This document shows, one piece after another, positions 7,154-38,656 of a DNA stretch of 64,000 bases. The position numbers and the translations under genes are program-made. Numbering within the stretch: the first letter of the stretch is position 1; every line of letters starts with the position of its first letter. Below the pieces are notes generated by a model that saw nothing but the letters and a program-made list of their open reading frames with translations, had not been told where the DNA came from and searched no databases. Source of the DNA: Corallococcus exiguus. GTDB taxonomy: Bacteria; Myxococcota; Myxococcia; Myxococcales; Myxococcaceae. The stretch is taken from assembly GCF_009909105.1 (NCBI RefSeq), contig NZ_JAAAPK010000002.1:349827-413826 (forward strand). The letters are read 5' to 3'.

Positions 7154-7762
7154 TCAGGGGGCATTGGCTGCACCGGGGCCGGTCACGTCCGTGAACTTCG
7201 TGCCGGTGATGACCGCGCGCTCCAGGGCCTCCTTGATCTCCTCGGACACGATCAAGGCCACGGTCCAGCCCCAGGTGCGGAACACCTTGGCGCCTTCCAC
7301 CTTCGCCGGGTCGATGCGCATCCCGGACACGGAGGAGTACGTACCCACCTTTTCGGGCATCCCGTCCTCCGGGGTCCAGTAACGCACCTCCTCGCACGCT
7401 GCATCGTCGATGCACTTCACCAGCCGGGTGGCGTTGAGGATGAAGTGCTGAGCGGGCTGGGAGTCGATCTCCACCGGGATGAGCTGCACGTCGTCGGGTG
7501 CCAGCTCGGTGAAGAAGGAGGCCACCCGGGCGTGGACGACGGGGATGCTGAATGCCGCGTGGGAATAGTCGAGCGGTTTGCCGGAGATCTTGATGGGGAT
7601 CCTGATGCGCTCGTCCGAGTGAGCCCGCTGCCCGATCCTGAACTGCCACGGGTCATCGAGCTTGCGCCCTTCCTGATCGAGAGGATGCCCCAGCTCCCAC
7701 CGGCCGGAGAGGTACACATCATCGCTCAACTTGAAGAACCGCGTCGGCATGAAGTCGTCCAT
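7154..7762 (-). CDS. Putative polymorphic-toxin immunity protein (second, possibly orphan; resembles DUF1629/Imm11-like proteins)
   Basis: 202-aa protein immediately downstream of the toxin and the first immunity gene in the same orientation. Family assignment is from memory and uncertain. Confidence 0.4.
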   Translation of the reverse strand: MDDFMPTRFFKLSDDVYLSGRWELGHPLDQEGRKLDDPWQFRIGQRAHSDERIRIPIKISGKPLDYSHAAFSIPVVHARVASFFTELAPDDVQLIPVEIDSQPAQHFILNATRLVKCIDDAACEEVRYWTPEDGMPEKVGTYSSVSGMRIDPAKVEGAKVFRTWGWTVALIVSEEIKEALERAVITGTKFTDVTGPGAANAP

Positions 7763-7772
7763 CCGAGGCGGG

Positions 7773-8126
7773 CTACTCTGGATCGAGCGCCCAGGTTCCT
7801 TCTTCCCAGCGCTTCAATGCCTGCCCGGCTTCAAAGGGAACGAGCCCCTTGCCCTTGGCGGCTTCCTCCAGAACCGCCTTCGCTTCGGCCGTCCGGTAGC
7901 GGAGCAGATGGGCGGCGGCCATGACACGCACATCCATGCGCTCATGCTTGAGCAGGACGAGGAGGGCATCACGTCCTGCGTTTCCATGGGCCAGGAGCGT
8001 ATCGACGGCGGCACCGTACTTCCTGGCGTGCTTGTTCCCGGTCTTGGCATCTCCCCGGAAGATGGCCTCGGTCTGTGCCGCCACGTTCAGGGCGAACTGC
8101 TCGACCAATCTCTCCAACGTCATCAC
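7773..8126 (-). CDS. DUF2019-like small helical immunity protein
   Basis: 117 aa. The MTLERLVEQFALNVAAQTEAIFRGDAKTGNKHARKY...VRVMAAAHLL...AEAKAVLEEAAKG...FEAGQALKRWEEGTW pattern matches the DUF2019 family as I recall it. Its start overlaps the toxin stop by 4 nt (ATGA). Confidence 0.5.
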   Translation of the reverse strand: MMTLERLVEQFALNVAAQTEAIFRGDAKTGNKHARKYGAAVDTLLAHGNAGRDALLVLLKHERMDVRVMAAAHLLRYRTAEAKAVLEEAAKGKGLVPFEAGQALKRWEEGTWALDPE

Positions 8127-9532
8127 CAGACCCCCTTCGCCACGTTCTCCATGGCCAGCAGCCCGAAGTCACGCTGGGCCTCGTAGGACTGCGTGCTCAA
8201 CCATTGCCTCACGGTCAAGGTGCTGGAGCCCGTGATACTACGCCGGATCGACGAGTAGAGCGCGCTGACGTCGGTGTGCAGGATCTTGTCCAGTGGGATG
8301 AGGTTCTCGGTGTTGTGGAGGGCCTGGGGGCCGAAGCGCTTCACGTTGCCCGGGGTTTGCTCGACGATGTGGTGCCACTCCTTGTTCTTGCCCGCCGGGC
8401 CCATGGCCTTCTTGAAACCACTGAACGAGCTCCAGGCCCTGTAGCCCAAGGGACGCGCCTTGGCGGAGGCGCTGCCGCCCGTGGCTTTGGCCGCCATGGC
8501 CACCGCGCCGGGCGCGAGGGCGATGGTGACGGTCTCGGCGCTCACGGCCACCGTTCCCACGTCCGCGACCGCCGCGAGCCTGATGCCCATTTGCGCTTCA
8601 GCCTGGACCGCCGCCTGCGCGGCGCCTGGGAGCATTGGCACCTTCGACCCCAGCCCCGCCGCCGTGTTCCCAATGGCGGCCGTGGCCAACATGGCGAACG
8701 CGCGCGCCGCGTTGCGGCCCATGACCTTGCCGTAGCGCTCACCCGCCTCGCGGAGTTCGTCAAACGTGGTGGCCCGCTCCGCCTCCTCCACCAGCTGCTT
8801 GAAGCCCAAGATGAGGCTCCAGAACGTATCGACCCCGACGTAGGCAATGAGGGAGGCGGTCATCACGGCGGCCACGCCCTTCGAGAAAGGCTCGGGCACC
8901 GCGAGCAAGATGCAGTACGTGGTCCACGTCCAAAGAACCGCAGCCATCATGGCCTGGGGATCAGCCATCTCTTTGAAGGCGTCCATCATCTCGTCCCGCA
9001 CGACGCCTTGGGCCAAGGCCATGGCCAGGGCGTAACGGCCATCCCCGGTGACAGTAGGGCTCTCCACCAGGAGGCGCAGGCAATCGCCGGGATTGCTCGT
9101 TCGCTCGCACCAGCGCAGGTATGCGCGCGTCAGATCCACCTCTGTCGAGGGGAGATCACCGTCCAGGTGTTCGCCCGGTCCCAGCGGGATGACACGGTGG
9201 CTGCGCGGCTCGTACAGGTATGAACCGCTGCGCGGATCCATCTCGAAAAACCGCCGGGCCGTTTCCTGGGGATGAGTGGACGGACGTACGTTCCGGGCGA
9301 GCGCTTCTACGGCTTCAACGAAGTCGTCTTCGTCCAGCGCCACCGGGGCGGTATCGCCGCTGCGTGGGGTAAGGACGATGGACTCGCCGTGGCCCGTGTG
9401 CAGGCGCACGGACTTCGTGGTGCCGCTGCATCCAGCCAGCATCACGAGCAGTAGGAGAATTGACCATCGTGGCAGCATGCGGAGCCCTCCTGGCGCGGGC
9501 CCCCTTCGCTCGGGAGCGTATCGGCGGCGCAA
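8123..9532 (-). CDS. SitA-like lipoprotein polymorphic toxin with C-terminal WHH/HNH-fold nuclease domain
   Basis: N-terminal signal peptide + lipobox (LLLLVMLAGCSG), a central Ala-rich region, and a C-terminus reading KEWHHIVEQ...HNTENLIPL...H. This is characteristic of the Tox-WHH (HNH superfamily) nuclease. The probable true start is the internal Met (MLPRW, ~9478). Confidence 0.55.
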   Translation of the reverse strand: MRRRYAPERRGPAPGGLRMLPRWSILLLLVMLAGCSGTTKSVRLHTGHGESIVLTPRSGDTAPVALDEDDFVEAVEALARNVRPSTHPQETARRFFEMDPRSGSYLYEPRSHRVIPLGPGEHLDGDLPSTEVDLTRAYLRWCERTSNPGDCLRLLVESPTVTGDGRYALAMALAQGVVRDEMMDAFKEMADPQAMMAAVLWTWTTYCILLAVPEPFSKGVAAVMTASLIAYVGVDTFWSLILGFKQLVEEAERATTFDELREAGERYGKVMGRNAARAFAMLATAAIGNTAAGLGSKVPMLPGAAQAAVQAEAQMGIRLAAVADVGTVAVSAETVTIALAPGAVAMAAKATGGSASAKARPLGYRAWSSFSGFKKAMGPAGKNKEWHHIVEQTPGNVKRFGPQALHNTENLIPLDKILHTDVSALYSSIRRSITGSSTLTVRQWLSTQSYEAQRDFGLLAMENVAKGVW

Positions 9533-9593
9533 GGCCTAGTAATACCAGATAGAGCTGACAGATGCTCCGGGCTGACGCCGTCTGTGGTGGAGC

Positions 9594-9989
9594 GTGTGCG
9601 GCCGACGGCGTGCCTTCTGGAACGTCACGCCGAGAGAGAGCGTGCGCTGTCAGCCCGGTCACCACAGCTTGAGCGTGAAAGGCCCCACCGAGCACCGGAC
9701 GGTTACCTTCGTCTCCGACGCGCGCCTGCCCTTGGACAACAACCGCTCCGAGGCAGCGCTGCGCAAAGCGGCGCTGGGCCGGAAGAACTTCCTCTTCGTC
9801 GGCCATGAGGCCGCGGGCGAAAACCTCGCTGGCCTCTACGCCCTCGTCGCCACCTGCGAAGCCAACGGCGTCAATCCCGAGGCCTACCTCGCCGACATGC
9901 TGCTGCGCGTCCAGACGCACCCGCTTGCGCGCGTCGGCGAGCCGCTGCCGCACGAATGGGAGCGGCTTCGCGCCGCCGACGCTTCCTGA
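9594..9989 (+). pseudogene. IS66-family transposase C-terminal fragment (remnant)
   Basis: DNNRSEAALRKAALGRKNFLFVGHEAAGENLAGLYALVATCEANGVNPEAYLADMLLRV matches the conserved C-terminus of IS66 TnpC. Only ~130 aa of a ~500-aa protein are present. Confidence 0.6.
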
Positions 9990-10183: not shown

Positions 10184-11782
10184 CTATTCACCAACAGGGG
10201 TGTCGATTGGTGGAACACCTTCCTTCTGTTGGGGGACCTGTGCAGAGGCGTTTGCCGGCTGTGCGGCAAGGTGAGTTGGAGTCAAGGAAGGGCTTGCATG
10301 AAGCATAGCTCTTAAGTCGTTTTCGATTTCAGAGAGTATTTTGAGATGAAATATGGCGAACTGGTCGGGATTGAGTCCTTGAGGAGAGGCTGCGCCCGAG
10401 AGTCTCTTGAAGACGTCCGCATGCTTCCTTCGTTTGACCGCTACTTTGTTGCCCTTTCCATGATCGACGTCGTGTCTGATTTCTGTGCGAAGCGTGTTTA
10501 CATCTATGAAGGAAGAAGGTGGCGACTCGCCGAGTCGCTCCCCAGGGCCTTCCCACAAAAGAAAGTAAAGGTTGTCGATCAGCTTTTCATATTCTGCGAC
10601 GTCCGAAATCAAAACTCCAAGGCTTCTCTGTGCCTTCAGGGTTTTGTTTGTTGGCTTGAAGAGGTCTTTGCCGGTGGCGGATTGAGATTTTGTGTTTATC
10701 TGCTCAATCAGTTCTGCGATTTGTTCTGCCTTGGCGAGGACGTCGGCCTTAGGAGTCGTTTTGGCGATGGCTGTGGCGCCAAAAGCACTGGCCAGTTCAG
10801 GGTTTTTGGTGAGGAGCTTTTTGGTGAGGATGCGCTGTCGGGCCTCTGGGCCGGATTTGATATTGGCGTTGATTGTCTTCTGGAATTCGAGGTAGTCGCG
10901 ATCGGTGGCCTTGACCCCTAGTTCTACTTGCTTGGAAAGCTCTTCTGTGAAGGCTTCGGCGAAGCTGGAGAACACCGTCTCGTGTCCAACGGCCTTTCCT
11001 GCTGAGACGAGCGTTGCCGCAAGGGTGAAGATTGATTGAACTATGGTCCGGTTGTGTAGTGCTGGGGAAGGGGCGGGAAAGGATTTGTCGAGAAAGGCTA
11101 GTGTTGATGTGATTCTTTTGGCGACCGCTGATTTTCTTGAGAATGTCGAGTTGTTTTCGAATATCAGCTTGAGGTCGTCAAAGCGAAGGCCTGTTGTGAT
11201 CCCCTTGATTTCGATTGCGCAGGCCTTGGCGGCAATGTCGAGATGTGAGTGGCGGTAGTCCTCGACTTGGCATTTTGACTTGAAAAAACTGTGCTTTGAT
11301 ACGTCGAGTGCGAAGTCGCGCAATTCGCTGTGAATGGCGTTTAGTCTCTCGCTGCTCGTGAGCGGAAGTCCGAGTTGGAGTCTTTGAAAGAACTCCTTGA
11401 GGTCTGATTCAATGGCCCCGGTGATTACGTCGTACTCGATCTCGAAGTCATCGAATTTGTCTGCTATCGCAGTTGGGAGTTCTTTGTAGAGTTTCCCTCC
11501 CATTTGAGTGGGAGAGTCCATAGGGATCTCAAGCTCATTTCCAAAGAAGCGCCAGATGGCCTGAAGGCGCTGCTGCCCGTCGACCACTTCGTACTGGTCG
11601 CTGTCGTTGGACTTCTTGACAAAGTAGAATTTTGGCAGCTTCCATCCGCGTAGGATGCTGTCGATAAGATTCTGCTGAAGCTTTTTGTCCCAGACTTTCC
11701 CGCGTTGCCAATCTGGAATCTCATAGCGACCGCGCCGTGCATAAATCTTGTCGAGAGACCTCTTCTCTGATCTCATTTCCAT
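10184..11782 (-). CDS. DUF262 (ParB/Srx-like nuclease domain, GmrSD N-terminal-like) protein; candidate anti-phage defence gene
   Basis: N-terminal IPDWQRGKVWDKK...VVDGQQRLQAI motif (the DGQQR signature of DUF262). The gene is conspicuously AT-rich relative to its flanks. No DUF1524 H..H motif is obvious in the C-terminal ~350 aa. Confidence 0.6.
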   Translation of the reverse strand: MEMRSEKRSLDKIYARRGRYEIPDWQRGKVWDKKLQQNLIDSILRGWKLPKFYFVKKSNDSDQYEVVDGQQRLQAIWRFFGNELEIPMDSPTQMGGKLYKELPTAIADKFDDFEIEYDVITGAIESDLKEFFQRLQLGLPLTSSERLNAIHSELRDFALDVSKHSFFKSKCQVEDYRHSHLDIAAKACAIEIKGITTGLRFDDLKLIFENNSTFSRKSAVAKRITSTLAFLDKSFPAPSPALHNRTIVQSIFTLAATLVSAGKAVGHETVFSSFAEAFTEELSKQVELGVKATDRDYLEFQKTINANIKSGPEARQRILTKKLLTKNPELASAFGATAIAKTTPKADVLAKAEQIAELIEQINTKSQSATGKDLFKPTNKTLKAQRSLGVLISDVAEYEKLIDNLYFLLWEGPGERLGESPPSSFIDVNTLRTEIRHDVDHGKGNKVAVKRRKHADVFKRLSGAASPQGLNPDQFAIFHLKILSEIENDLRAMLHASPSLTPTHLAAQPANASAQVPQQKEGVPPIDTPVGE

Positions 11783-11866: not shown

Positions 11867-11965
11867 TGGCGGTAGGGCACGGGAATCGAACTCGCCAGGG
11901 ACTGCTCTCGCAGCCCCTCATTGGTTTTGAAGACCAAGCCGGCCACCAGGTCCGGAGGCCCTACC
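11867..11965 (-). tRNA. selC: tRNA-Sec (anticodon UCA), ~99 nt
   Basis: Minus-strand sequence GGTAGGGC...TTGGT-CTTCAAA-ACCAA...GGCGAGTTCGATTCCCGT-GCCCTACC-G-CCA. Shows an 8-bp acceptor stem, a 7-nt anticodon loop with U33 and UCA at 34-36, a long variable arm, a TTCGATT T-loop, discriminator G, and an encoded CCA. D-arm and T-stem pairing were not fully verified by hand. Confidence 0.6.
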
Positions 11966-25033: not shown

Positions 25034-25086
25034 TTCGCAGTCCCCTCTGATTCCCCGCCGGCCCCGTCGGGGGCCGGCCGCTTGCA

Positions 25087-28000
25087 ATGACTGACACGAC
25101 TGAACTGTCCAAGGCCTACGAGCCCTCCGAAGTGGAGGCGCGGTGGTACAACCACTGGCTGGAGCGCGACTACTTCCGCGCCGAAGCCCCTTCCTCCAAG
25201 CCGCCGTTCAGCATCGTGCTGCCGCCGCCCAACGTGACGGGCAGCCTGCACATCGGCCACGCGCTCACCGCGACCATCCAGGACATCCTCACGCGCTGGA
25301 AGCGGATGAGCGGCTTCAACGCGCTCTGGCTGCCGGGCACGGACCACGCGGGCATCGCCACGCAGATGGTGGTGGAGAAGGAGCTCAAGAAGACGGAGGG
25401 CAAGAGCCGCCACGACCTGGGCCGCGAGGCGTTCCTCGAGCGCGTCTGGACGTGGAAGGGCAAGTTCGGCGCGCGCATCGGTGAGCAGCACCGCTACCTG
25501 GGCGCGTCCCTGGACTGGAGCCGCGAGCGGTTCACCATGGACGAGCAGTCCTCGGCCGCGGTGCGCGAGGTGTTCGTCCGGCTGTACGAAGAGGGCCTGA
25601 TGTACCGGGCCCAGAAGCTGATCAACTGGTGCCCGTCCTGCCGCACGGCCCTCTCCGACCTGGAAGTGGAGCACGAGGAGAAGAACGGCTCGCTCTGGCA
25701 TATCCGCTACCCGGTGAAGGGCACGGAGCGCTTCCTCACCGTGGCGACGACGCGCCCGGAGACGCTGCTGGGCGACACGGCCGTCGCCGTGCACCCGGAG
25801 GATCCGCGCTACCAGGACCTCATCGGCAAGAGCGTGGCGCTGCCGCTCACCGACCGTGAGATTCCGGTCATCGCGGACGGCGAGCTGGTGAACATGGAGT
25901 TCGGCACCGGCGTGGTGAAGGTCACGCCCGCGCACGACTTCAACGACTACCAGACGGGCCTGCGCCACAAGCTGCCGATGCTGTCCATCCTGGACGAAGC
26001 GGCGCGGATGACGAAGGACACCGGCAAGTACGCGGGCCTGGAGAGCCGGGAGGCGCGCAAGCAGGTGCTGGCGGACCTGACGGAGCTGGGCCTGCTGGAG
26101 AAGGAGGAGCCGCACAAGCTGAACGTGGGCACCTGCCAGCGCTGCACCACGGTGGTGGAGCCGCGCCTGTCGCCGCAGTGGTTCATCAAGATCGAACCGC
26201 TGGCGAAGCCGGCCATCCAGGCCGTGGAGGAGGGCCGCACGAAGTTCGTCCCCGAGTCGTGGACGAACACGTACTTCCACTGGATGAACAACATCCACGA
26301 CTGGTGCGTGAGCCGCCAGCTGTGGTGGGGCCACCAGATTCCCGCGTGGTACTGCGCGGCGTGCACCCCGGCGGAAGAGCGCTCGAAGGACACGGCGGAC
26401 GTCATCGTGTCTCGCACGGCGCCGGAGTCCTGCCCGAAGTGCGGCGGCAAGGAGCTGACGCAGGATCCGGACGTGCTGGACACCTGGTTCTCGTCCGCGC
26501 TGTGGCCGTTCTCCACGCTGGGCTGGCCGAAGCAGACGGCGGACCTCCAGACCTTCTACCCGACGTCCGTGATGGAGACGGGCCACGACATCATCTTCTT
26601 CTGGGTCGCCCGGATGATGATGATGGGCCTGCACTTCATGAACGATGTGCCCTTCCGCACCGTGTACCTGCACGCGATGGTGCGCGACGAGAAGGGCGAG
26701 AAGATGTCCAAGACGAAGGGGAACGTCATCGATCCCTTGGACGTCATCCTCGGCGCGAAGGCGGAGTCGCTGCAGCCGTCCTTGCGCAACCGCTTCCCGC
26801 AGGGCATGCCCGCGCACGGCGCGGACGCGCTGCGCTTCACGCTGGCGTCGCTCACGCAGCAGGGCCGTGACATCAAGCTGTCGATGGACCGCCTGGGTGG
26901 CTACAAGGCGTTCTGCAACAAGCTGTGGAACGCCAGCCGCTTCGCCCTGATGAACATGGGCGACTTCAGCCTGGACAAGACGCCGCTGGAGGGCCGCAAG
27001 CTGACGCTGGCGGACCGGTGGATCCTCTCCCGCCTGCAGAAGGCCACCGAGGAGACGCGCGCGTCGCTGGAGGCGTTCGGCTTCGCGGAGGCCGCGTCCA
27101 CGCTGTACCAGTTCCTGTGGGCGGAGTTCTGCGACTGGTACATCGAGCTGGCGAAGGGCTCGTTGTACGGCGACGACGCGGAGGCCAAGGACACCACGCG
27201 CGCGGTGCTGGTGACGTGCCTGGACCGCATCCTGCGGCTGATGCACCCGTTCATGCCGTTCATCACCGAGGAGATCTGGCAGAAGCTGCCGATGTCCCGG
27301 CCCACGGAGAGCATCTGCATCGCGGCGTACCCGGCGCCGGAGACGGCGTGGGTGGACGCGGCCGCGGAAGGCGAGATGGCGCCGGTCATCGCGGCCATCG
27401 AGGGCCTGCGCACGCTGCGCGGCGAGAGCAACCTGCCGCCGTCCGCCAAGGTGAAGGCGGTGGTGCAGAGCCCGGACGCGACGACGCGCGAGCTGTTGGA
27501 GCGTTGGCGCGCGTACCTGATGCCGCTCGCGGGCCTGTCCGAGGTGGTGGTGGGCCCCCCGGGCGCCAAGCCTCCGCAGGCGGCGGCGTTCGTGAGCGGC
27601 AACCTGGAAATCTACGTGCCCCTGGCGGGCCTGGTGGACCTGGACGCGGAGCGCGACCGCCTGAAGAAGGAGATCGTCCGCTCCGAGCAGGAACTCACCG
27701 GTTTGCAGCGCAAGCTGGACAACCCGAACTTCGTGGCCCGTGCTCCGCCGGACGTGGTGGAGAAGGACAAGGCCCGGGTGGCGGAGCTCCAGGAGCGCAC
27801 GGTCAAGCTGCAGGATCACCTCCAGCGCATCGCCCCGGAGCCCCCCATGTCCGAGACGCCGTCGCCGTTGCCGGGCAGCACCGAGTCCGAAGCCCCTGAA
27901 GCGTCCGAGTCCCCCGCGCCCGAGAGCGCCCATGTGAAGGTGGCCACCGAGCCGCAGGCACCGAAGGACGATGCGGTGAACCTGGGCCAGGAGCTGAAGG

Positions 28001-28584
28001 GCGAGATTGAAGCCGAAGAGGCTTCGCAGGCGCCCCAGGCCGCGGATCCGGTGGTGGAGGAGGCCCTCAACAAGCTGCGCGAGGGCACCAAGGAAGGACT
28101 GTCCCCGGCGGACCACCACGACCTGGGCGTCGCGTACATGAGCATGGGCCTCGTGGACGACGCGATGCGCGAGTTCGACCGGGCCAAGGAGGGCGGCGAC
28201 GCCCGCGAGGCGCCGGAGGGTTCGGCGAAGCCGGTGAAGAAGGCCCCTGCGAAGAAGGCCTCCTCGAAGAAGGCGGCGGTGAAGAAGGCCCCTGCGAAGA
28301 AGGCCGCGGCGGTGAAGAAGGCCCCTGCGAAGAAGGCCTCCGCGAAGAAGGCGGCGAGCAAGAAGTCCGCCGCGAAGAAGGCCCCTGCGAAGAAGGCTTC
28401 CGCGAAGAAGGCAGCGGGCAAGAAGACGGCCGCGAAGAAGGCGGCGGTGAAGAAGGCTCCTGCGAAGAAGGCTTCGGCGAAGAAGGCTTCGGCGAAGAAG
28501 GCGGCGGGGAAGAAGACCGCCGCGAAGAAGGCCGCGGCGAAGAAGACCACTCGGGGCAAGCCGGCTCGCAAGGCGCGCCGGTAG
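25087..28584 (+). CDS. valS: Valine--tRNA ligase with ~280-aa C-terminal extension (acidic linker + histone H1-like AKKA repeats)
   Basis: HIGH ([13 protein letters not shown]) and KMSKS ([13 protein letters not shown]) motifs, editing domain, and a C-terminal coiled coil (up to ...LQDHLQRIA at ~aa 885). An E/P/S-rich segment, one TPR-like helix pair, and a [17 protein letters not shown] repeat tail follow. Confidence 0.9.
28234..28584 (+). repeat. Tandem DNA repeats encoding the Lys/Ala (AKKA) tail of valS
   Basis: Repeated gcgaagaaggcc(c/t)ctgcgaagaaggc units seen directly. Confidence 0.55.
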
Positions 28585-30613: not shown

Positions 30614-30862
30614 GAGGGTTTCTCCAGATGAGGCAGAGCGGGCGCCGTCGTGGCGCTCCGCATGTCTGTCTGCCTGCGAATACGGAGAACCCCCGGCGCG
30701 CTGGTTGTTCGAAATGCGCTCCAGTCTGGAACACCGCGCACCGGAGTGGAGCGAGTGTCCGCGCCAGTCCGGTGCGGTGCGGAGCCGTTCCAGGGCGAGC
30801 GGTGACGGCATGGGGCTCGCAATGACTCGCGGCTGAACCCCACTCCCGCGAGCAGGTGTGCC

Positions 30863-33139
30863 ATGCCGTCCGCCCCCAGCACCGAAGCCATCCAGCGCAT
30901 CTCCCTGAAGAACCGCGAGTACGCATACATCGAGGACGCCAACCGCGGCGTCGTGCTGATGGAGGTGGGCCCGCGCGTGCTGACGCTCGAAGCGCACCTG
31001 ACGCTCGTGGCGAAGGAGCGGATGGTGGAGCTGGGCGCCGGCAGCTGGTGCGTGGTGCGCAACCCCGTGGTGCGTGTGGACGGCCAGGTGGCGCTGGACG
31101 ACTTCGGCCAGGCCCGCGTCGCGGTGGGCGACCGCGAGGTCCGCGTGGGCCCGAAGGTGTTCCCGCTGTACCCCGGCGAGGAGCTGGAGGGCGACATCGT
31201 CCCGGAATACGTCCTGGGCGTGTCGGAGGCGCTGCGTCTGCGCGCGCTCACCGCCTTCACGGACACCCACGTCCCGGACGCTCCCCGCCGCCGTGAAGCG
31301 GGTGACGAGTGGCTGGTGCGCGGCCCCGGCCGCTACGTGCCCGGCGAGTCCGTCACCGTCGTGTCGCTGGAGAAGGCCCGCGTCCTCAAGGAGACCGAGT
31401 ACTGCGTCATCCTCAATCCCGTGGACCGCGCCACCGGCCGCGTCCAGGAGGGCCGCCGCAAGGTCGTCTCCGGTCCGGATGTCTTCTTCCTCGAACCCGG
31501 CGAGGCGCTGGAAGGGGACGTGCGCCGCAAGCATGTCCTGTCGGAGCTGCAGGGCCTGAAGCTCCAGGCCCTGGACGACCTCTCCGAGAACGAGGGTGGC
31601 GAACCGCGCGCACGCAAGGCCGGTGACACGTGGATCGTCCGCGGCCCTCGCACCTACGTGCCCAGCGAGAAGGTCCTCATCCACCGGGAGATTGCCGCGC
31701 TGTCATTGGGGCAGGGGGAAGGCCTGTACGTGCGCGACCTGCGCTCGGGCAAGGTGTCGCTCGTCCAAGGGCCTTGCCAGTTCATGCCGGAGGCACACCA
31801 GGAACTGCACGAGAAGCGCCTGTCCCCGGACGCGGAGGCCCTGCTGGGCCTCACTCCGCCGCTGCCGCTCGCGGAGGCGAAGGACGCCCGCGCGCCACGG
31901 CCCACAAGCGCGACGGAGAAGGGGGACCGCACTCGCGCCATCGTGCTGCGCATCGAGGACAACACGGCGGTCCTCATCAACGACTTCGAGTCCAATCACG
32001 CGCGCGTGGAGTTCGGCCCCGCGAAGGTGATGTTGCGTCCGTACGAGGACGTCACCGTCCTGGATTTGTCCGGCAGCACGCCCAAGCGCCCGCGTCAGCT
32101 CAAGGTGCTGATGCTGCGGCTGGGGCCGGACTTCGCCACGGACCTCTTCGAGGTGGCCACTCGCGACCACGCGCGGCTGCGCATCAAGCTTTCGTACAAA
32201 TGGCAGTTCGACGTGCAGGGGGACCCGGAGAAGGACAAGGCCATCTTCCGGGTGAACGACTTCATCGGGTACGTGTGTGAGAACCTCGCGTCGCGCATCC
32301 GCCAGGTCGCCGCGGAGAACGAGTTCGAGACCTTCCACAAGAACGCCAGCGTGCTCATCCGCCGCACCATCTTCGGCATGGATGACGCGGGCCGCGCTCG
32401 CAAGGACCGCCTCTTCTCCGAGAACCAGCTGCGCATCATCGACATCGACATCAAGGACATCGCCCCCGTCGATGAGAAGACGGCCCTGAAGCTGCGCGAG
32501 GCCATCGACACCAACATCCAGATCCAGCTGGACGCCTCACGCCAGGAGGCCCAGGCCGCCGCGGAGCTCAAGCGCATCCGCAGCGAGGAGGAGAAGCAGC
32601 TCGCGGACATCGCCAGCCACCGCAAGTCGGAGGCGGAGCGCCAATCCCTCATCGAATTGCAGAACCGCAACCACCAGCTGGAGACGCTCAGCCGCGCCAA
32701 GGTGGAGGCGGAGGCCCAGCTGGAGCGCGCCCGCGTGGAGAGCGAAGAGGCCCTGGCCCGCGCCGAGTCCGACGCCCGCGCCTCGCGCATCCGCTCCGAA
32801 GCGGAGATCGAGCGCGAACGGCTCACCACCCAGGTGGCCCTGGATCGCCAGCAGCGCCTCAATGACCTGGAGGTGGAGCGCCAGTCGCGCCTCGCGGAAG
32901 TGGAAGCCGGCCAATTCCGTCAGCGCGTGGAGTCCCTGGGGGGAGGGGAGAACTTCGTGAAGGCCGTGGCCGCGCAGGCCCAGGCCGCCGTCGTCGGAGG
33001 CCTGGACAAGGTCGTCTTCCTCCCCAGCGGCTCCAACCTCAACCTCTTCGACGCCATGCAGGGACTCCTGGGGCCCGGCGGACAACCCCGCCTGTCCGCC
33101 CACAACGCCCCGAAGCCGCCCGGCGACACTTCGGCCTGA
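30863..33139 (+). CDS. Major vault protein (MVP) homologue: vault repeats + shoulder (SPFH-like) domain + cap-helix coiled coil
   Basis: Block-by-block similarity to eukaryotic MVP as recalled from memory: FPLYPGEELEGDIVP vs PLYPGEVLEKDITP; AGDEWLVRGPGRYVP vs AGDEWLFEGPGTYIP; EYCVILNPVD...FFLEPGEALEGDV...VLSELQGLKLQALD vs HNYCVILDPVG...FFLQPGEQLEQGI...VLSEQQGLLLRALQ. Also RVEFGPAKVMLRPYEDVTVLDLSGSTPKRP...LGPDFATDL...DHARLRIKLSYKWQFDV vs [30 protein letters not shown]...LGPDFFTDV...DHARLQLQLAYNWHFEV. A long Ala/Glu/Arg-rich coiled coil is followed by NLNLFDAMQGLLGPGGQP. It is about 135 aa shorter than human MVP, with fewer N-terminal repeats. Confidence 0.8.
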   Translation: MPSAPSTEAIQRISLKNREYAYIEDANRGVVLMEVGPRVLTLEAHLTLVAKERMVELGAGSWCVVRNPVVRVDGQVALDDFGQARVAVGDREVRVGPKVFPLYPGEELEGDIVPEYVLGVSEALRLRALTAFTDTHVPDAPRRREAGDEWLVRGPGRYVPGESVTVVSLEKARVLKETEYCVILNPVDRATGRVQEGRRKVVSGPDVFFLEPGEALEGDVRRKHVLSELQGLKLQALDDLSENEGGEPRARKAGDTWIVRGPRTYVPSEKVLIHREIAALSLGQGEGLYVRDLRSGKVSLVQGPCQFMPEAHQELHEKRLSPDAEALLGLTPPLPLAEAKDARAPRPTSATEKGDRTRAIVLRIEDNTAVLINDFESNHARVEFGPAKVMLRPYEDVTVLDLSGSTPKRPRQLKVLMLRLGPDFATDLFEVATRDHARLRIKLSYKWQFDVQGDPEKDKAIFRVNDFIGYVCENLASRIRQVAAENEFETFHKNASVLIRRTIFGMDDAGRARKDRLFSENQLRIIDIDIKDIAPVDEKTALKLREAIDTNIQIQLDASRQEAQAAAELKRIRSEEEKQLADIASHRKSEAERQSLIELQNRNHQLETLSRAKVEAEAQLERARVESEEALARAESDARASRIRSEAEIERERLTTQVALDRQQRLNDLEVERQSRLAEVEAGQFRQRVESLGGGENFVKAVAAQAQAAVVGGLDKVVFLPSGSNLNLFDAMQGLLGPGGQPRLSAHNAPKPPGDTSA

Positions 33140-33224: not shown

Positions 33225-34250
33225 GTGACGACGATGAGCAACCCCGAAGGGGCGGTCCGGAAGCGCGGTGCACGGTGGTTCGGCATGGGGGCCCTGGCGG
33301 CCCTCGCGCTGGCCGTGGTGGCGCCGGGATGCAGCAGCGACGAGTGCGTGGATGCGTTCGACTGCCGCGATGAGGGCGCGGCCCCCGCGGGCAAGGCATG
33401 GACCTGCAACGCGGACAAGAAGTGCGAGCAGCGCACCCTGACGCCGACCGAAGAGCCTGAGACGGACGCGGGCACCACCACTGACGCCGGGACGACCCCC
33501 GACGCGGGCACCACCACCGACGCGGGCACGGGCGGCGAGACGGACGCGGGCACGGAGACCGACGCGGGCACGCCTCCCGCGGATGGCGGCGCGGAGCTGT
33601 GCCGCAACGCCGTGGCCTGCACGGAGCAGAGCATCGACAAGCTCCGGCTCCGCACGGTCGGCTCCGACGGCGGCGTGATTGAAGAGGGCACGACGGCGGG
33701 CGAGCACCTCACGTACCTGGATGGCCGCGGGGGTGGCACGGCGGTGCCGGACTCGTACACCTACGCGCGCTTCACGGCGACGGGCCTGGAGAAGGTCTAC
33801 ATCGATGATCAGTCCTCGCTGGATTCGACCGCGTGGGACGTCGCGGTGCGCCGGTACGTCGTCCGCTTCAACAGCGGCGTGTCCGGCCCGTCGTGCGTGA
33901 CCGTGGCGCAGACGGCGGACGGCACGACGTTCGAGTCGGTGACCTCCGTGCCCACGGATGCGCAGTTCGTTGCGGAGAACTACTACACGCCCGACACCTG
34001 CACGTTCACCGGGGACTCGTTTGGCCTTCAGAGCCCGGCGACCCAGACCCTCTCGTACTGGGACTACGCTTCCTGCCTGCAGATGACGAACAAGGTCTAC
34101 CTGGTCCAGCTGGCGGACGGCCGTCACGTGAAGCTGCAGGTCAAGGACTTCTATGAGCCCGCGATCCAGGAGGAGTGCAACACGACGGGCAAGGTGAGCT
34201 CGACGGCCAGCTCAGGGTCGATCCGCCTGCGGTGGTCCTTCCTGCCGTGA
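33225..34250 (+). CDS. Lipoprotein with low-complexity TDAGT linker and C-terminal ~220-aa domain of unknown function
   Basis: Signal peptide + lipobox (LALAVVAPGCSS), then an (E/T)TDAGT repeat linker, then a globular domain with 6 Cys. Stop overlaps the start of the next gene. Confidence 0.5.
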   Translation: MTTMSNPEGAVRKRGARWFGMGALAALALAVVAPGCSSDECVDAFDCRDEGAAPAGKAWTCNADKKCEQRTLTPTEEPETDAGTTTDAGTTPDAGTTTDAGTGGETDAGTETDAGTPPADGGAELCRNAVACTEQSIDKLRLRTVGSDGGVIEEGTTAGEHLTYLDGRGGGTAVPDSYTYARFTATGLEKVYIDDQSSLDSTAWDVAVRRYVVRFNSGVSGPSCVTVAQTADGTTFESVTSVPTDAQFVAENYYTPDTCTFTGDSFGLQSPATQTLSYWDYASCLQMTNKVYLVQLADGRHVKLQVKDFYEPAIQEECNTTGKVSSTASSGSIRLRWSFLP

Positions 34251-35818
34251 TGACCCTCGGGGTTCCCACGCTGCTCCTGCTGCTGGCCGGCGCGGGAACC
34301 CCGCGTGGCCTCCCGCACGAGCGGGAGGCCGTACAGAAGCTGGTCGCCGAGTCCGGGCGGCCCACCTCGCCTGGCGCGCCATCGCCGCGCTACGAGCCCG
34401 AGGACACGGTGGAGTCCGTCGTGTCTCCGGGCGGGCGCTTCCGCATCCACTTCACCCGCCAGGGCACCCACGCCGTGCCGCCAGCGGACGCGGATGGCAG
34501 CGGCGTGCCCGACTTCGTGGAGCTCGTCGGGCGCACCTACGAACGCGTGGCGACGTTCTACGTGGACCTGGGCTTCCGCCTGCCGCCCGACGACACGAAT
34601 CCGGCCGGGGACGACGGCGGCGACGGCCGCTTCGACGTGTACCTGGTGGACTTCGCGAGGATTGGCGACGGCGCCTTCCGGCAGGAGACCTGCCTGGAGG
34701 GCGTCACGCGCTGCACCGGCTTCATGCTCCAGGAGAACGACTTCACGGGCTACAACTACCCGTCCGACGCAGAGGCCGTGGAGATCCTGGCCAGCCACGA
34801 GTTCTTCCACGCGGTGCAGGCCGCCTACCGGCCTGACCTGGGCGGCGTCGCCTCCGAGGGCACCGCCGTCTGGGCCACCGAGCGCTTCGAGCCCGCGCTC
34901 GACGACCTGGAGCACTTCACCCGCGGCTACATGCTGACTCCGGACAGCACGCTGGTGCTGGACCCCGCGGGGCCCGGCGTGACCTTCATCTACGGCGCGG
35001 GGCTCTTCTTCCAGTTCGTGGGCGAGCGCTACGGTGACGGCGCGCTCGTCGCGCTGCTGGAGGAGTCCGTGCGCCAGCCGGAGGCCCGCTGGCCGGTGCT
35101 GCTGGACACCTGTCTGCGCCGCGACTTCGCCTCCAGCTTCGACGCGGCCTTCGCCCAATTCGCCACCTGGAACCTGGGCACCGGCCCGCGCGCGACGCCG
35201 GGGTTCGGCTACGCGCGAGGGGAGGGCTATGCACCGGTGGCGAAGACGGCGGCGGAGCTCCCCACCACGATCGACCGCGTGCGCGTCGCGGCGGCGGCCT
35301 CGCGGATCTTCGAGGTCCCCGGCGGCGCTTCCTTCGTGGGCGCCTCGTTCGAGCCCGAGCCGGGCATCGACCCGGCCACGGTGCACCTGGTCGTCGCGGC
35401 CGTCACGGATGACGCCGTGCTGCGGGTGGCGACCGTGGACGGGCCGGACGCCCTGCGCGCCCAGGTGGCCGCGGATGACGCCACGCGCGTGATGGTGGCG
35501 GTCGTGGATGGCCGGATGGAAGGCCTGGGTCGCTATGGCCGCCTGTGCATCGCTGCCACTGGCCAGTCCGCGTCCTGCGCGCCCCTCGAGTCGACGGATG
35601 CCGGAACCGACGCTGGGACCCCCGATGCCGGCGCGGACGCGGGCACCGCCGATGCGGGGACCGTGGACGCGGGCAGGCCCGTGGATCCCATCGATGATCC
35701 GCGCACGCCCTCGGATGACGGTGGCTGCCAGGCCGCGGGTGGCCCCCTGTCCGGTGCGCTCGTCGCGCTGCTGCTCGGCGGGGGCCTGCGGGCCCGGCGG
35801 CGTTCACGGGCGCGTTAG
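34250..35818 (+). CDS. Secreted HExxH zinc metalloprotease with MYXO-CTERM sorting/anchor domain
   Basis: Signal peptide (MTLGVPTLLLLLAGAG), zincin motif HEFFHAVQ, and a C-terminal TDAGT low-complexity segment. The terminal GGCQAAGGPLSGALVALLLGGGLRARRRSRAR is the MYXO-CTERM signature. Confidence 0.6.
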   Translation: MTLGVPTLLLLLAGAGTPRGLPHEREAVQKLVAESGRPTSPGAPSPRYEPEDTVESVVSPGGRFRIHFTRQGTHAVPPADADGSGVPDFVELVGRTYERVATFYVDLGFRLPPDDTNPAGDDGGDGRFDVYLVDFARIGDGAFRQETCLEGVTRCTGFMLQENDFTGYNYPSDAEAVEILASHEFFHAVQAAYRPDLGGVASEGTAVWATERFEPALDDLEHFTRGYMLTPDSTLVLDPAGPGVTFIYGAGLFFQFVGERYGDGALVALLEESVRQPEARWPVLLDTCLRRDFASSFDAAFAQFATWNLGTGPRATPGFGYARGEGYAPVAKTAAELPTTIDRVRVAAAASRIFEVPGGASFVGASFEPEPGIDPATVHLVVAAVTDDAVLRVATVDGPDALRAQVAADDATRVMVAVVDGRMEGLGRYGRLCIAATGQSASCAPLESTDAGTDAGTPDAGADAGTADAGTVDAGRPVDPIDDPRTPSDDGGCQAAGGPLSGALVALLLGGGLRARRRSRAR

Positions 35819-36864
35819 CGCTCGAACTCGTCGCACCCCGTCTCCTGCTTGGACGGGAAGGCGGACTTCTTCTCCTGGCGCACGTAGTCGTGGCTCTGGG
35901 AGAAGAGGTCCGGGCTGCTCACGGTCACGGTGCCCTTCGCGGCGTCGGCCGTCTTCCACTGGAGCGCCTCCGGCTTGCCGTCCGCGGCCGTGAGCCCCAG
36001 CACCCAGGCCCCGGCGCCCTTGCCGGCCTCCACGGACGTCACCTTCATCGTCGTGGCCTCCTGGCCCAGCTGCACCTCCACCTCGCCCGTCGCGGGCTTG
36101 ACGGTGAAGCTGCGCGTCGCGGCCGAGCAGGGCTTGAGCACCACGAAGCCCTTGCCCTGACGCGTCAGCTCCACCCACGTCCCCGCGAACGGCTGGAGTT
36201 TGTCCGCGGCCACGGGAGCCTTCGCGGCCGTGGGCGCGCCTTCCGCCGCACAGTCCAGGTCCTCGCGCTTGAGCAGCCCCGCCGTGGCCTTCTGGGGCCC
36301 CTGGAAGCGCGCGGCGAGGAAGTCCGGCTCCACCGGGTCGACGTAGGCCTCCACCGCGTCCCCGGACACCACGAACGCCTTGCGCGGCGTGTTGGCCGCG
36401 TCAGAAGCGTGGAAGCCCGCCTTGGACACCTTCACCTTGCAGATGCTCAGCGGCTTGGAGGTGCTCCGGGCGAACGTGTCCTTGCCTGAGTAGCCGGCGC
36501 CGCAACAGGACGGTGACGGACCCGACTCCAGGACGAATTGCTTGGGATTGACGCGCAGCGTCCAGGCGTCTTCCTCACCCGCCTGATGAAGTGACCAATT
36601 CGTGGCTGTCTTCTTCTGGACGACCAGGGCGCAATCGCAGGTGCCCGCGCTGCTGCCCTGCGGGAACGAGCCCGAGAAGTGCACGAGCGTCTCGTTGCTG
36701 CCCTCGACGATGGCGAGCGTCCCGCTCTTGTTCGAATAGACCCCCGTGAGTCCCTCGGATCCCTGAGCCGAGGCGTCCGGGACCGCGCCTGTGACGCAAA
36801 TGGCAAACGGCAATGCCAAACTTTTGAATTCCGGTTGGATCCTGGACATCGGACTGGTCCTCAT
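35815..36864 (-). CDS. Secreted hypothetical protein
   Basis: N-terminal signal peptide (SLALPFAICVTGAVPDASAQG). No recognisable domain. Several Cys. Confidence 0.4.
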   Translation of the reverse strand: MRTSPMSRIQPEFKSLALPFAICVTGAVPDASAQGSEGLTGVYSNKSGTLAIVEGSNETLVHFSGSFPQGSSAGTCDCALVVQKKTATNWSLHQAGEEDAWTLRVNPKQFVLESGPSPSCCGAGYSGKDTFARSTSKPLSICKVKVSKAGFHASDAANTPRKAFVVSGDAVEAYVDPVEPDFLAARFQGPQKATAGLLKREDLDCAAEGAPTAAKAPVAADKLQPFAGTWVELTRQGKGFVVLKPCSAATRSFTVKPATGEVEVQLGQEATTMKVTSVEAGKGAGAWVLGLTAADGKPEALQWKTADAAKGTVTVSSPDLFSQSHDYVRQEKKSAFPSKQETGCDEFER

Positions 36865-36937
36865 GGGCAGGTTCTTCAGCCTCAGCGGATCGATCCGCTG
36901 AAACTGAAGCTGCTGGAATCACTGGTTTCACACGATT

Positions 36938-38656
36938 GTGACTGGGAATGCGAAACTGATCGCATTGCCTTTCGATAATCCGGGCAATCCAAGCACGTCC
37001 GCGGCGCCTTTGGTCGCGGCCAGACATCGAGGGGTCTTCTCCGTGACCGTCTCCAACATCCGCGTCAATTCGGGCGACACGCTTTCCGGCCTCGCGAAGC
37101 GCTACAACACGACCGTTGACGCGCTGGCCAAGGCGAACAACATCAAGGATCCGAACAAGATCCTGGCCGGCCAGACGCTGAAGGTGCAGGACGGCTTCGA
37201 CACGAAGGGCACCAACAAGTCGAGCGCGGGGACGAAGACGTCGGGCGACAGCTTCACGCAGTCCACGGACGGCGCGAAGGCGACCACGCCCGCCGCGAAC
37301 ACGAACTCCAGCAGCGCGACCAACGGGGAGTTGGGTGGGCTGAGCCGCAAGTACGAGGCTCGCGGCCCCGGCACCGTGTCCACGGGCAAGGGTGACAAGG
37401 GCGGCGTGTCCTACGGCTCCTACCAGTTCGCCTCCGCGAACGGGTCCGCGCAGTCGTTCGTCAACTCGCTGAAGAAGACGAACCCGGAGTTCCACAAGGC
37501 GCTGTCGGGCAGCAAGCCGGGCACTGCGGAGTTCTCCGCCGCGTGGAAGCAGCTGGCCGCGAAGGACCCGAAGGGCTTCGACAAGGCGCAGCACGACTAC
37601 ATCAAGACCACGCACTACGACGCGGGCGCCGCCAACATCAAGAAGGCGACGGGCATCGACCTGGACAAGCGCTCCGCTGCGCTGCGGGACGTGGCCTGGT
37701 CCACCTCCGTGCAGCACGGCCCGGGCAAGGCGGACGACATCTTCAAGAAGGCGCTCAACGGGCGCGACCCCGCGAAGGTGAGCGACGAGCAGCTCATCAA
37801 GGACATCTACGCCGAGCGCGGCCGCACCAACGCCAGCGGCACCCTGGTGCACTTCTCCGGCAGCTCCAAGGACGTGCAGAAGGGCGTGGCCAACCGATTC
37901 AAGTCGGAGGCGAAGGACGCCCTCGCGATGCTGAAGCAGGAGAAGTCGGGCACCACGACCAAGCCGGCCAACACCAACACGGGCGTGGTTCCCCCGTCCG
38001 TGAACAACGGTTCGAAGCCGGGCACCACGGAAGGCAAGCCCACGACGCAGGGCACGAACACCTCCAAGCCCACCACGGAGGCGGCCCCCGCGAACACGGA
38101 GCAGGTGGCCCCGTCCAAGGACAAGCCGGCGGTGCACGTGAAGGTGCCGTACTACAGCCAGTTCGAGAACGGCCACGGCTACACCGCGAGCGACACGGCG
38201 TGCTTCAAGGCCGCGACGGCGATGGCGCGTGACTCCGGCGCGACCGTGCTGGGCCCGGACCGCCGCATTCAGGTGGGCAAGAGCGAGAACGGCGTCGGCG
38301 CGCTCAACGTGGACTCGAAGAAGGCCGCCGAGGGCCGCAGCTACATCGACAAGCAGCTGGAGGCCGGCAAGCCGGTGGTCGTGGGCGTGAGCCACAAGGA
38401 CGCGAGCTACAACGCGGACGGCCTCACGGACCACTTCGTGACCATCACGGGCCGCGGCGTCGACGACAAGGGCCGCACCTACTACACGTTCCACGACCCG
38501 GGCACGAAGAACGCCAGCACGGGCAAGGACACGAACCCGAACAACCGCTTCTACGTGGATGACAAGACCGGGAACATGTACCGCCCCGGCAAGGCCGCGA
38601 ACGGCTACGTGACCGAGCGCCACTACGACGTGGCCATGGTGCGCATCAACAAGTAG
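36938..38656 (+). CDS. LysM-domain cell-wall hydrolase with lysozyme-like central domain and C-terminal papain-like (Cys-His) peptidase domain
   Basis: LysM ([46 protein letters not shown]). The central region ([21 protein letters not shown]...[11 protein letters not shown]) resembles phage/effector-type muramidase domains. C-terminal Cys (DTACFKAA) and His ([12 protein letters not shown]) residues with YYTFHDPG are typical of CHAP/C39-like amidases. No N-terminal signal peptide. Confidence 0.55.

Follow-up and report, generated by a model that had tools for sequence, protein, structure and literature searches.

VgrG3 of V. cholerae is a peptidoglycan glycoside hydrolase that acts in the periplasm and is neutralised by a periplasmic immunity protein. 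TseP of Aeromonas dhakensis combines glycan-cleaving and peptide-cleaving activity on peptidoglycan in one polypeptide. The same combination is described for Acinetobacter baumannii Tse4 (10.1101/2021.03.04.433973). The Bacteroides fragilis T6SS effector BtaeB was studied by Li et al. 2025 (Cell Host Microbe 33:1901; PMID 41072405), as cited in PMC13402684, and it enters a secretion complex whose other members are an adaptor, BtapC, and a further effector, BtpeA (PMC13402684). Among myxobacteria, T6SS is documented for M. xanthus (PMC10433427, PMC5801462). There, TsxE (MXAN_5572) is the one T6SS effector for which we found a description of experimental proof; it bears a LysM domain and is thought to target the cell wall (PMC5801462). 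Its uncharacterised immunity protein, TsxI (MXAN_5571), is predicted to be periplasmic, and the TsxE/TsxI pair is used against siblings (PMC5801462). Linkage of an effector to T6SS genes is not obligatory, and further unlinked effector-immunity pairs are expected by the authors of these studies (PMC5801462; PMC10433427). The effectors behind contact-dependent degradation of the prey wall are still to be identified (PMC12428579).

Myxobacteria are model predators, and few of their lytic effectors have been assigned to a delivery route. Here we describe a Corallococcus locus that probably encodes a bifunctional peptidoglycan hydrolase anchored by LysM, together with its immunity protein, as an orphan effector-immunity pair. 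The locus lies in a 64-kb stretch (hereafter, the window) of a high-GC myxobacterial chromosome (~69% GC), and its features are as follows.

35815..36849, minus strand: candidate immunity gene, divergent from the effector; encodes a 344-aa exported all-beta protein of approximately three beta domains
36850..37042, no strand: shared divergent intergenic region of ~190 bp (~180 bp in orthologous loci), presumably holding both promoters
37043..38656, plus strand: effector coding sequence; GTG start, 537 aa, 56.6 kDa, pI 9.55, single Cys, without signal peptide
37061..37186, plus strand: LysM peptidoglycan-binding module, residues 7-48 (PF01476, E 2.4e-15; PDB LysM matches, e.g. 8i2e and 4uz2)
37187..37330, plus strand: linker 1, low-complexity and Thr/Ser/Gly/Lys-rich; its length varies among orthologues (columns ~100-215 of alignment A1)
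37331..37909, plus strand: glycoside hydrolase domain of VgrG3-like C-terminal type, residues 97-289 (PF21277)
37355-37357, plus strand: presumed catalytic Glu105, the Glu of KYE, identical in the 4noo_A alignment
37394-37396, plus strand: presumed catalytic Asp118, the Asp of GD.GG, identical in the 4noo_A alignment
37943..38128, plus strand: linker 2, low-complexity and Thr/Pro/Asn/Lys-rich
38129..38653, plus strand: Cys/His domain with a papain fold, residues 363-537; member of the BtaeB C-terminal-domain family
38201-38203, plus strand: Cys387 of the Cys/His domain
38432-38434, plus strand: His464 of the Cys/His domain
38495-38497, plus strand: Asp485 of the Cys/His domain

The first-pass annotation had placed the gene at 36938..38656. 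An open reading frame with these limits is present on the plus strand, encodes 572 aa from its listed start and carries all three of the modules described for it. The frame and the end are real, but the start is too far upstream, and GTG 37043 (MTVSN...) is most likely the true initiator. The 18 orthologues without an annotated N-terminal extension begin at the position of this codon, immediately before the LysM fold. In alignment A1, comprising 20 orthologues from Corallococcus, Archangium, Cystobacter, Myxococcus, Pyxidicoccus and Stigmatella, the LysM fold begins at about residue 5-7 throughout, and all sequences except two or three have the common N-terminus M-(T/S)-x-(S/T)-N/S. GC3 is 0.63 over the 35 codons 5' of GTG 37043 as against 0.95-0.97 within the gene, and a GAGGGG Shine-Dalgarno-like motif is located 8 nt 5' of the codon. 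The protein shares 99% identity with an entry from Corallococcus exiguus (P0001) annotated just as "LysM peptidoglycan-binding domain-containing protein", for which the NCBI annotation starts at TTG 37010 and yields 548 aa. Recent horizontal acquisition was considered on account of the lower GC at 36-38 kb and was rejected in view of the GC3 of 0.95-0.97; the lower GC results from a Lys/Asn/Thr/Ser-rich composition. The codon usage of the effector gene is native (GC3 0.97), and the position of the gene is syntenic across Corallococcus species.

The module order that had been proposed, LysM followed by a lysozyme-like domain and a Cys/His peptidase, is borne out by profile and structure matches. 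For residues 42-83 of the 572-aa reading frame, PF01476 scores 56.6 bits, well past its gathering score of 20.9. The lysozyme-like character of the middle domain is confirmed by PF21277 (T6SS_VgrG3-like_C), which matches over profile positions 1-182 of 183 at E 2.8e-53, its 181.1 bits far exceeding the cutoff of 27, and by the V. cholerae VgrG3 structures, PDB 4noo_A/4nso_A, at E 1e-29. Glu105 and Asp118 are almost invariant in an alignment of 21 orthologues, and we take them to correspond to the catalytic Glu827/Asp842 of VgrG3 (4NOO/4NSO). The effector is not fused to a VgrG spike; VgrG, gp27 and gp5 domains are absent by Pfam, and the N-terminus is the LysM module itself. PAAR, Rhs and MIX-type marker domains were likewise not found in the protein. 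The C-terminal domain resembles chain A of 9JDD in both sequence and fold, the catalytic Cys and His of the two align, and the sole Cys of the effector is the catalytic one. The papain fold of this domain is C39-like; the domain falls outside Pfam Peptidase_C39_2 (PF13529). Its occurrence together with peptidoglycan-binding and peptidoglycan-hydrolase domains indirectly supports peptidoglycan as its substrate, on which it may act as an amidase or an endopeptidase. LlpM, the known secreted lysozyme of M. xanthus, was considered and discarded, as it is an unrelated GH19 enzyme.

An exhaustive HMMER search recovered 1,196 cluster representatives of the C-terminal-domain family at E up to 1e-3. 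In the best 143 of these, the domain is placed C-terminally almost always, and 141 of the 143 have no signal-like N-terminus. Companion Pfam domains among 134 representatives include PG_binding_1 (34), LysM (12) and PG_binding_3 (9), as well as SH3_3, Amidase_2, Peptidase_M15_4/VanY, Hydrolase_2, VgrG3-like_C and one eCIS_core; a Pfam scan of the same 134 relatives gave no match to PAAR, Rhs, VgrG or MIX-type marker domains. These companions say little about the export route. A phage homologue of the Cys/His domain was not found in 50,697 phage records, and tblastn with the BtaeB C-terminal-domain fragment against plasmids gave no match. The BtaeB-type domain is a widespread module, almost always signal-less and usually joined to wall-binding modules.

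Module swapping is apparent among the relatives. In M. xanthus P0067 (locus L004, 10001..11623), a LysM module and a BtaeB-like C-terminal domain flank a ~190-residue domain that replaces the VgrG3-like module and has no Pfam or PDB relative. No homologue of the Corallococcus partner gene adjoins P0067 or the two-module relative P0050; the 235-aa gene beside P0050 and the genes flanking P0067 were tested in this respect and are not homologous. In other myxobacterial proteins, the VgrG3-like domain is joined to CHAP/NlpC-P60 (P0061), M23 (P0072) or PG_binding_1. A protein with the VgrG3-like domain only and a Ser/Thr-rich N-terminus (P0059) is located in a Myxococcus landrumensis island together with Rhs-repeat toxins, DUF6968 genes and IS66 (locus L024, 1..11500), where the 98-aa reading frame that follows could be its immunity gene. 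A local HMM search of all the proteins collected showed that 21 C-terminal-domain relatives, including P0211, P0220, P0225, P0227, P0228 and P0231, have in common a ~90-residue N-terminal module with an EF-hand-like signature (..AG.DG.I...EF..LF..VD.FD..). This module has no Pfam match and could serve in targeting or regulation. WXG100/LXG-like N-termini (..W.G.D motif) were seen in VgrG3-like proteins (P0071, P0075, P0079) and in C-terminal-domain relatives (P0069, P0131, P0141). WXG100 and Rhs signatures in distant relatives are sub-threshold, at E 0.093 (Pfam WXG100, P0071) and 0.24, respectively, and were given no weight; if the WXG100/LXG-like N-termini are real, the same toxin modules would also serve type VII-like secretion.

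The genes on either side of the effector are as the first-pass annotation had them: the upstream one, on the opposite strand, encodes an exported protein, and the downstream one an aromatic amino-acid hydroxylase. The former, listed there as a secreted protein and otherwise unremarked, is a conserved partner of the effector and its likely immunity protein. It carries a signal peptide that ends in ...LALPFAICVTGAVPDASA, followed by QG, and it has 8 conserved Cys residues, whereas the effector has one Cys and no signal. Neither Pfam nor NCBIfam gave a match to it. Partner homologues of 45-90% identity are found directly upstream of the effector, on the opposite strand, in C. exercitus, Cystobacter fuscus, Archangium violaceum and Stigmatella erecta, and the remaining flanking genes are unrelated from genus to genus. 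A scan of a genome collection with the partner recovered 17 loci, 16 of which encode all three effector modules ~180 bp away in divergent orientation. With four loci found from the reciprocal direction, the adjacency spans five genera. Only a MAG departs from this pattern: its partner homologue is an orphan, as is often the case for immunity genes. With just 20 clusters, the partner family is tiny, and its named members all come from Cystobacterineae genera. Overall, the named sources of the three-module effector and the partner are Corallococcus, Myxococcus, Pyxidicoccus, Archangium, Cystobacter, Stigmatella and Hyalangium, all of them Cystobacterineae. A scan of the intergenic region for promoters found no sigma-70 consensus, which is uninformative for a myxobacterium, as is the terminator scan.

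Structural comparisons of the partner are less telling. A profile of its family gave nothing significant against PDB sequences, and no sequence similarity to BtaiB was seen. Foldseek against the PDB returned weak multi-domain noise, with Tp0751 as the sole domain-level match and 9jdd_B not in the top 50. A structural link of the partner to the immunity chain of 9JDD is therefore supportive but not decisive, and the conserved pairing, together with the logic of compartments, provides the stronger arguments for immunity.

With regard to export, the first-pass annotation had noted the absence of a visible Sec/Tat signal and had offered two ways out, namely a non-ATG start further upstream that adds a signal peptide, or another export route. 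The former would make the protein an ordinary Sec/Tat-exported hydrolase with a mis-called start. In-frame GTG 36938 and TTG 37010 codons do exist upstream, and a few database entries have short N-terminal extensions, yet none of these starts supplies a signal. The reading frame is blocked by a stop just before 36908, the maximal extension of 35 residues has neither a signal-like hydrophobic core nor a twin-arginine motif and is encoded by DNA with a non-coding-like GC3, and in a crude hydrophobicity test none of 120 homologues shows a signal-like N-terminus. The sequence effectively refutes such a Sec/Tat-exported hydrolase, which we regard as barely conceivable. Because the frame is closed, the maximal extension is signal-free and signal-like N-termini are missing from the homologues, we judge the missing signal peptide to be a conserved property of the family and not an annotation artefact. 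Another export route is thus favoured, and T6SS is a good candidate for it because, for both catalytic modules, the nearest relatives that have been characterised are toxin domains of T6SS effectors, namely V. cholerae VgrG3 and B. fragilis BtaeB. The immunity-like partner is predicted to be periplasmic, and the toxin would therefore reach the periplasm of kin, as sibling T6SS traffic of M. xanthus does. However, no T6SS gene is linked to the pair. T6SS core, VgrG, PAAR, Hcp and adaptor domains were not found in the 35 open reading frames scanned in the window, and the genes listed for seven loci of homologues with gene calls and Pfam annotation likewise include no T6SS domain. Given these absences and the use of the VgrG3-like domain in endolysins, domain names alone are no proof of T6SS delivery, and we give T6SS about an even chance of being the export vehicle.

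Two other ways out of the cell have to be weighed against T6SS. The effector may be a bacteriolytic enzyme that needs no dedicated secretion machine, is freed by outer-membrane vesicles or by partial lysis of the swarm, in the manner of endolysin-like or developmental autolysis, and acts from outside on prey walls, with Gram-positive walls or damaged Gram-negative prey as targets and with the exported partner shielding the producer's own sacculus. The lack of linked secretion-system genes and the basic pI of 9.55 are consistent with such a release, and myxobacterial secretomes lyse Gram-positive prey (PMC10849154). Phage endolysins have the same architecture of wall-binding and catalytic modules without a signal, jumbo phages of Erwinia and Dickeya carry VgrG3-like domains under an endolysin annotation, and signal-less LysM-VgrG3-like proteins of ~300 aa occur in housekeeping neighbourhoods of other phyla, being abundant on Acidobacteria-type contigs. 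On the other hand, the effector gene keeps a syntenic position and native codon usage throughout Corallococcus, and no holin, spanin or virion genes and no prophage context were found near it; its neighbours encode a hydroxylase, a LysR regulator, a dehydrogenase, an M1 peptidase, a vault protein and ValRS. Among the phage records searched, the C-terminal domain has no relatives, and the only solved structure close to it belongs to an injected T6SS toxin. Moreover, an enzyme acting from outside could not cross the intact outer membrane of its producer, which would make a tightly co-inherited periplasmic partner hard to explain. We consider release by vesicles or lysis unlikely.

Delivery by the Kil (Tad-like) apparatus and the needle-less T3SS*, with local degradation of prey peptidoglycan at contact sites, appears more doubtful still. 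According to a 2025 review, localised peptidoglycan degradation is a mark of T3SS*-dependent prey lysis, the effectors of which are only hypothesised, and Kil and T3SS* co-occur only in Cystobacterineae (PMC12428579), the suborder from which all named sources of the effector and its partner come; a T3SS-type substrate would likewise carry no Sec signal. Vertical inheritance within one suborder would produce the same taxonomic overlap, however, and kil and T3SS genes are unlinked at every locus examined. The LysM module begins ~5 residues from the start in all orthologues, leaving no room for the disordered N-terminal segment of ~20 residues that serves as the signal of classical T3SS substrates, although the rules of a needle-less T3SS* may differ. 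A dedicated immunity partner also suits kin-directed T6SS traffic better than delivery to prey only. In a speculative and rather improbable extension of this scheme, the effector and paralogues such as P0067 would be Kil/T3SS* lytic effectors, and the partner would unite two immunity proteins in one fusion, with one barrel per catalytic module.

The reading of the locus that we prefer is an orphan antibacterial effector-immunity pair with Sec-independent, contact-dependent export, most probably by T6SS, and as a whole it seems to us moderately probable. The effector would be made in the cytoplasm without a Sec/Tat signal and would be exported by a Sec-independent contact-dependent machine, probably as spike-bound cargo of a T6SS, so that it enters a neighbour's periplasm. 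LysM would anchor it there on glycan strands, the VgrG3-type domain (Glu105/Asp118) would cleave the glycan backbone and the BtaeB-type papain-fold domain (Cys387/His464), acting as an amidase or endopeptidase, would cleave the peptides of the wall. With both parts of the wall cut, the target would be expected to lyse. In the periplasm of the producer, the Sec-exported, disulfide-rich beta partner is hypothesized to block effector delivered by sister cells.

Several other genes of the window were noted along the way. Just upstream of the partner gene are an HmuY-like exported protein (33225..34250, plus strand) and an HExxH metalloprotease of the MXAN_6640 family that ends in a MYXO-CTERM-like tail (34175..35818, plus strand), both of them surface or secreted proteins, conserved in Corallococcus and not found beside the pair in other genera. 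A bacterial counterpart of the eukaryotic major vault protein with Vault repeats and MVP_shoulder (30806..33139, plus strand; E 9e-45) has the same position in C. exercitus (locus L001). The valyl-tRNA synthetase (25051..28584, plus strand) ends in a Lys/Ala/Pro-rich tail of ~120 residues that matches histone-H1-like HC2 at E 1.3e-11. A low-GC island (53% as against ~69%) encodes a 532-aa GmrSD_N/DUF262-type protein (10184..11782, minus strand; Pfam E 2.1e-20), next to which are a tRNA-Sec (11871..11965, minus strand) and an IS66-like transposase remnant (~9594..9989); this is probably a small integrated defence island. Near it, a 470-aa reading frame without a Pfam match (8123..9535, minus strand) is closely followed by a gene with the polymorphic-toxin immunity domain Imm11 (7154..7813, minus strand; E 3.5e-12), and the two may form a second, unrelated toxin-immunity pair.

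All modules of the effector come from known families, bifunctional wall-targeting effectors such as Tse4 and TseP are already known, and the biology to be expected is of a known type. The locus nevertheless provides a conserved and genetically tractable candidate in which one polypeptide should cut both glycan and peptide and is accompanied by a probable immunity gene. It would also extend the toxin-immunity fold of BtaeB-BtaiB, recently solved in gut Bacteroidota, into Myxococcota. If active, the effector may be useful as a bacteriolytic protein.

Compared with known systems, the endolysins of Erwinia and Dickeya jumbo phages have the same catalytic fold as the middle domain (34-43% identity among the 25 matches listed) and are also signal-less, but the Corallococcus effector has no prophage, holin or virion context. 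Tse4 and TseP differ in that their catalytic families are unrelated, they have no LysM and they are encoded beside vgrG genes. The C-terminal domain of VgrG3, the target of TsiV3 (PDB 4NOO/4NSO, PF21277), is a clear homologue of the effector's middle domain, with the Glu and Asp of KYE...GD.GG kept. The C-terminal domain of BtaeB (Bfe7), solved with its immunity protein BtaiB (PDB 9JDD, 9JG8/9JG9), is a relative of the effector's C-terminal domain; the N-terminal ~420 residues of the 617-aa BtaeB have no counterpart in the Corallococcus effector, genes of the BtapC/BtpeA type are not linked to the Corallococcus pair, and the Corallococcus partner is ~2.7 times longer than BtaiB, with extra domains and no sequence similarity. 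TsxE has an amidohydrolase-2 catalytic domain and is encoded directly downstream of vgrG2, whereas the Corallococcus pair has other catalytic domains, a divergent arrangement and no linked vgrG. Nonetheless, TsxE/TsxI belongs to the same lineage and likewise combines a LysM-bearing, wall-directed effector with a periplasm-directed partner.
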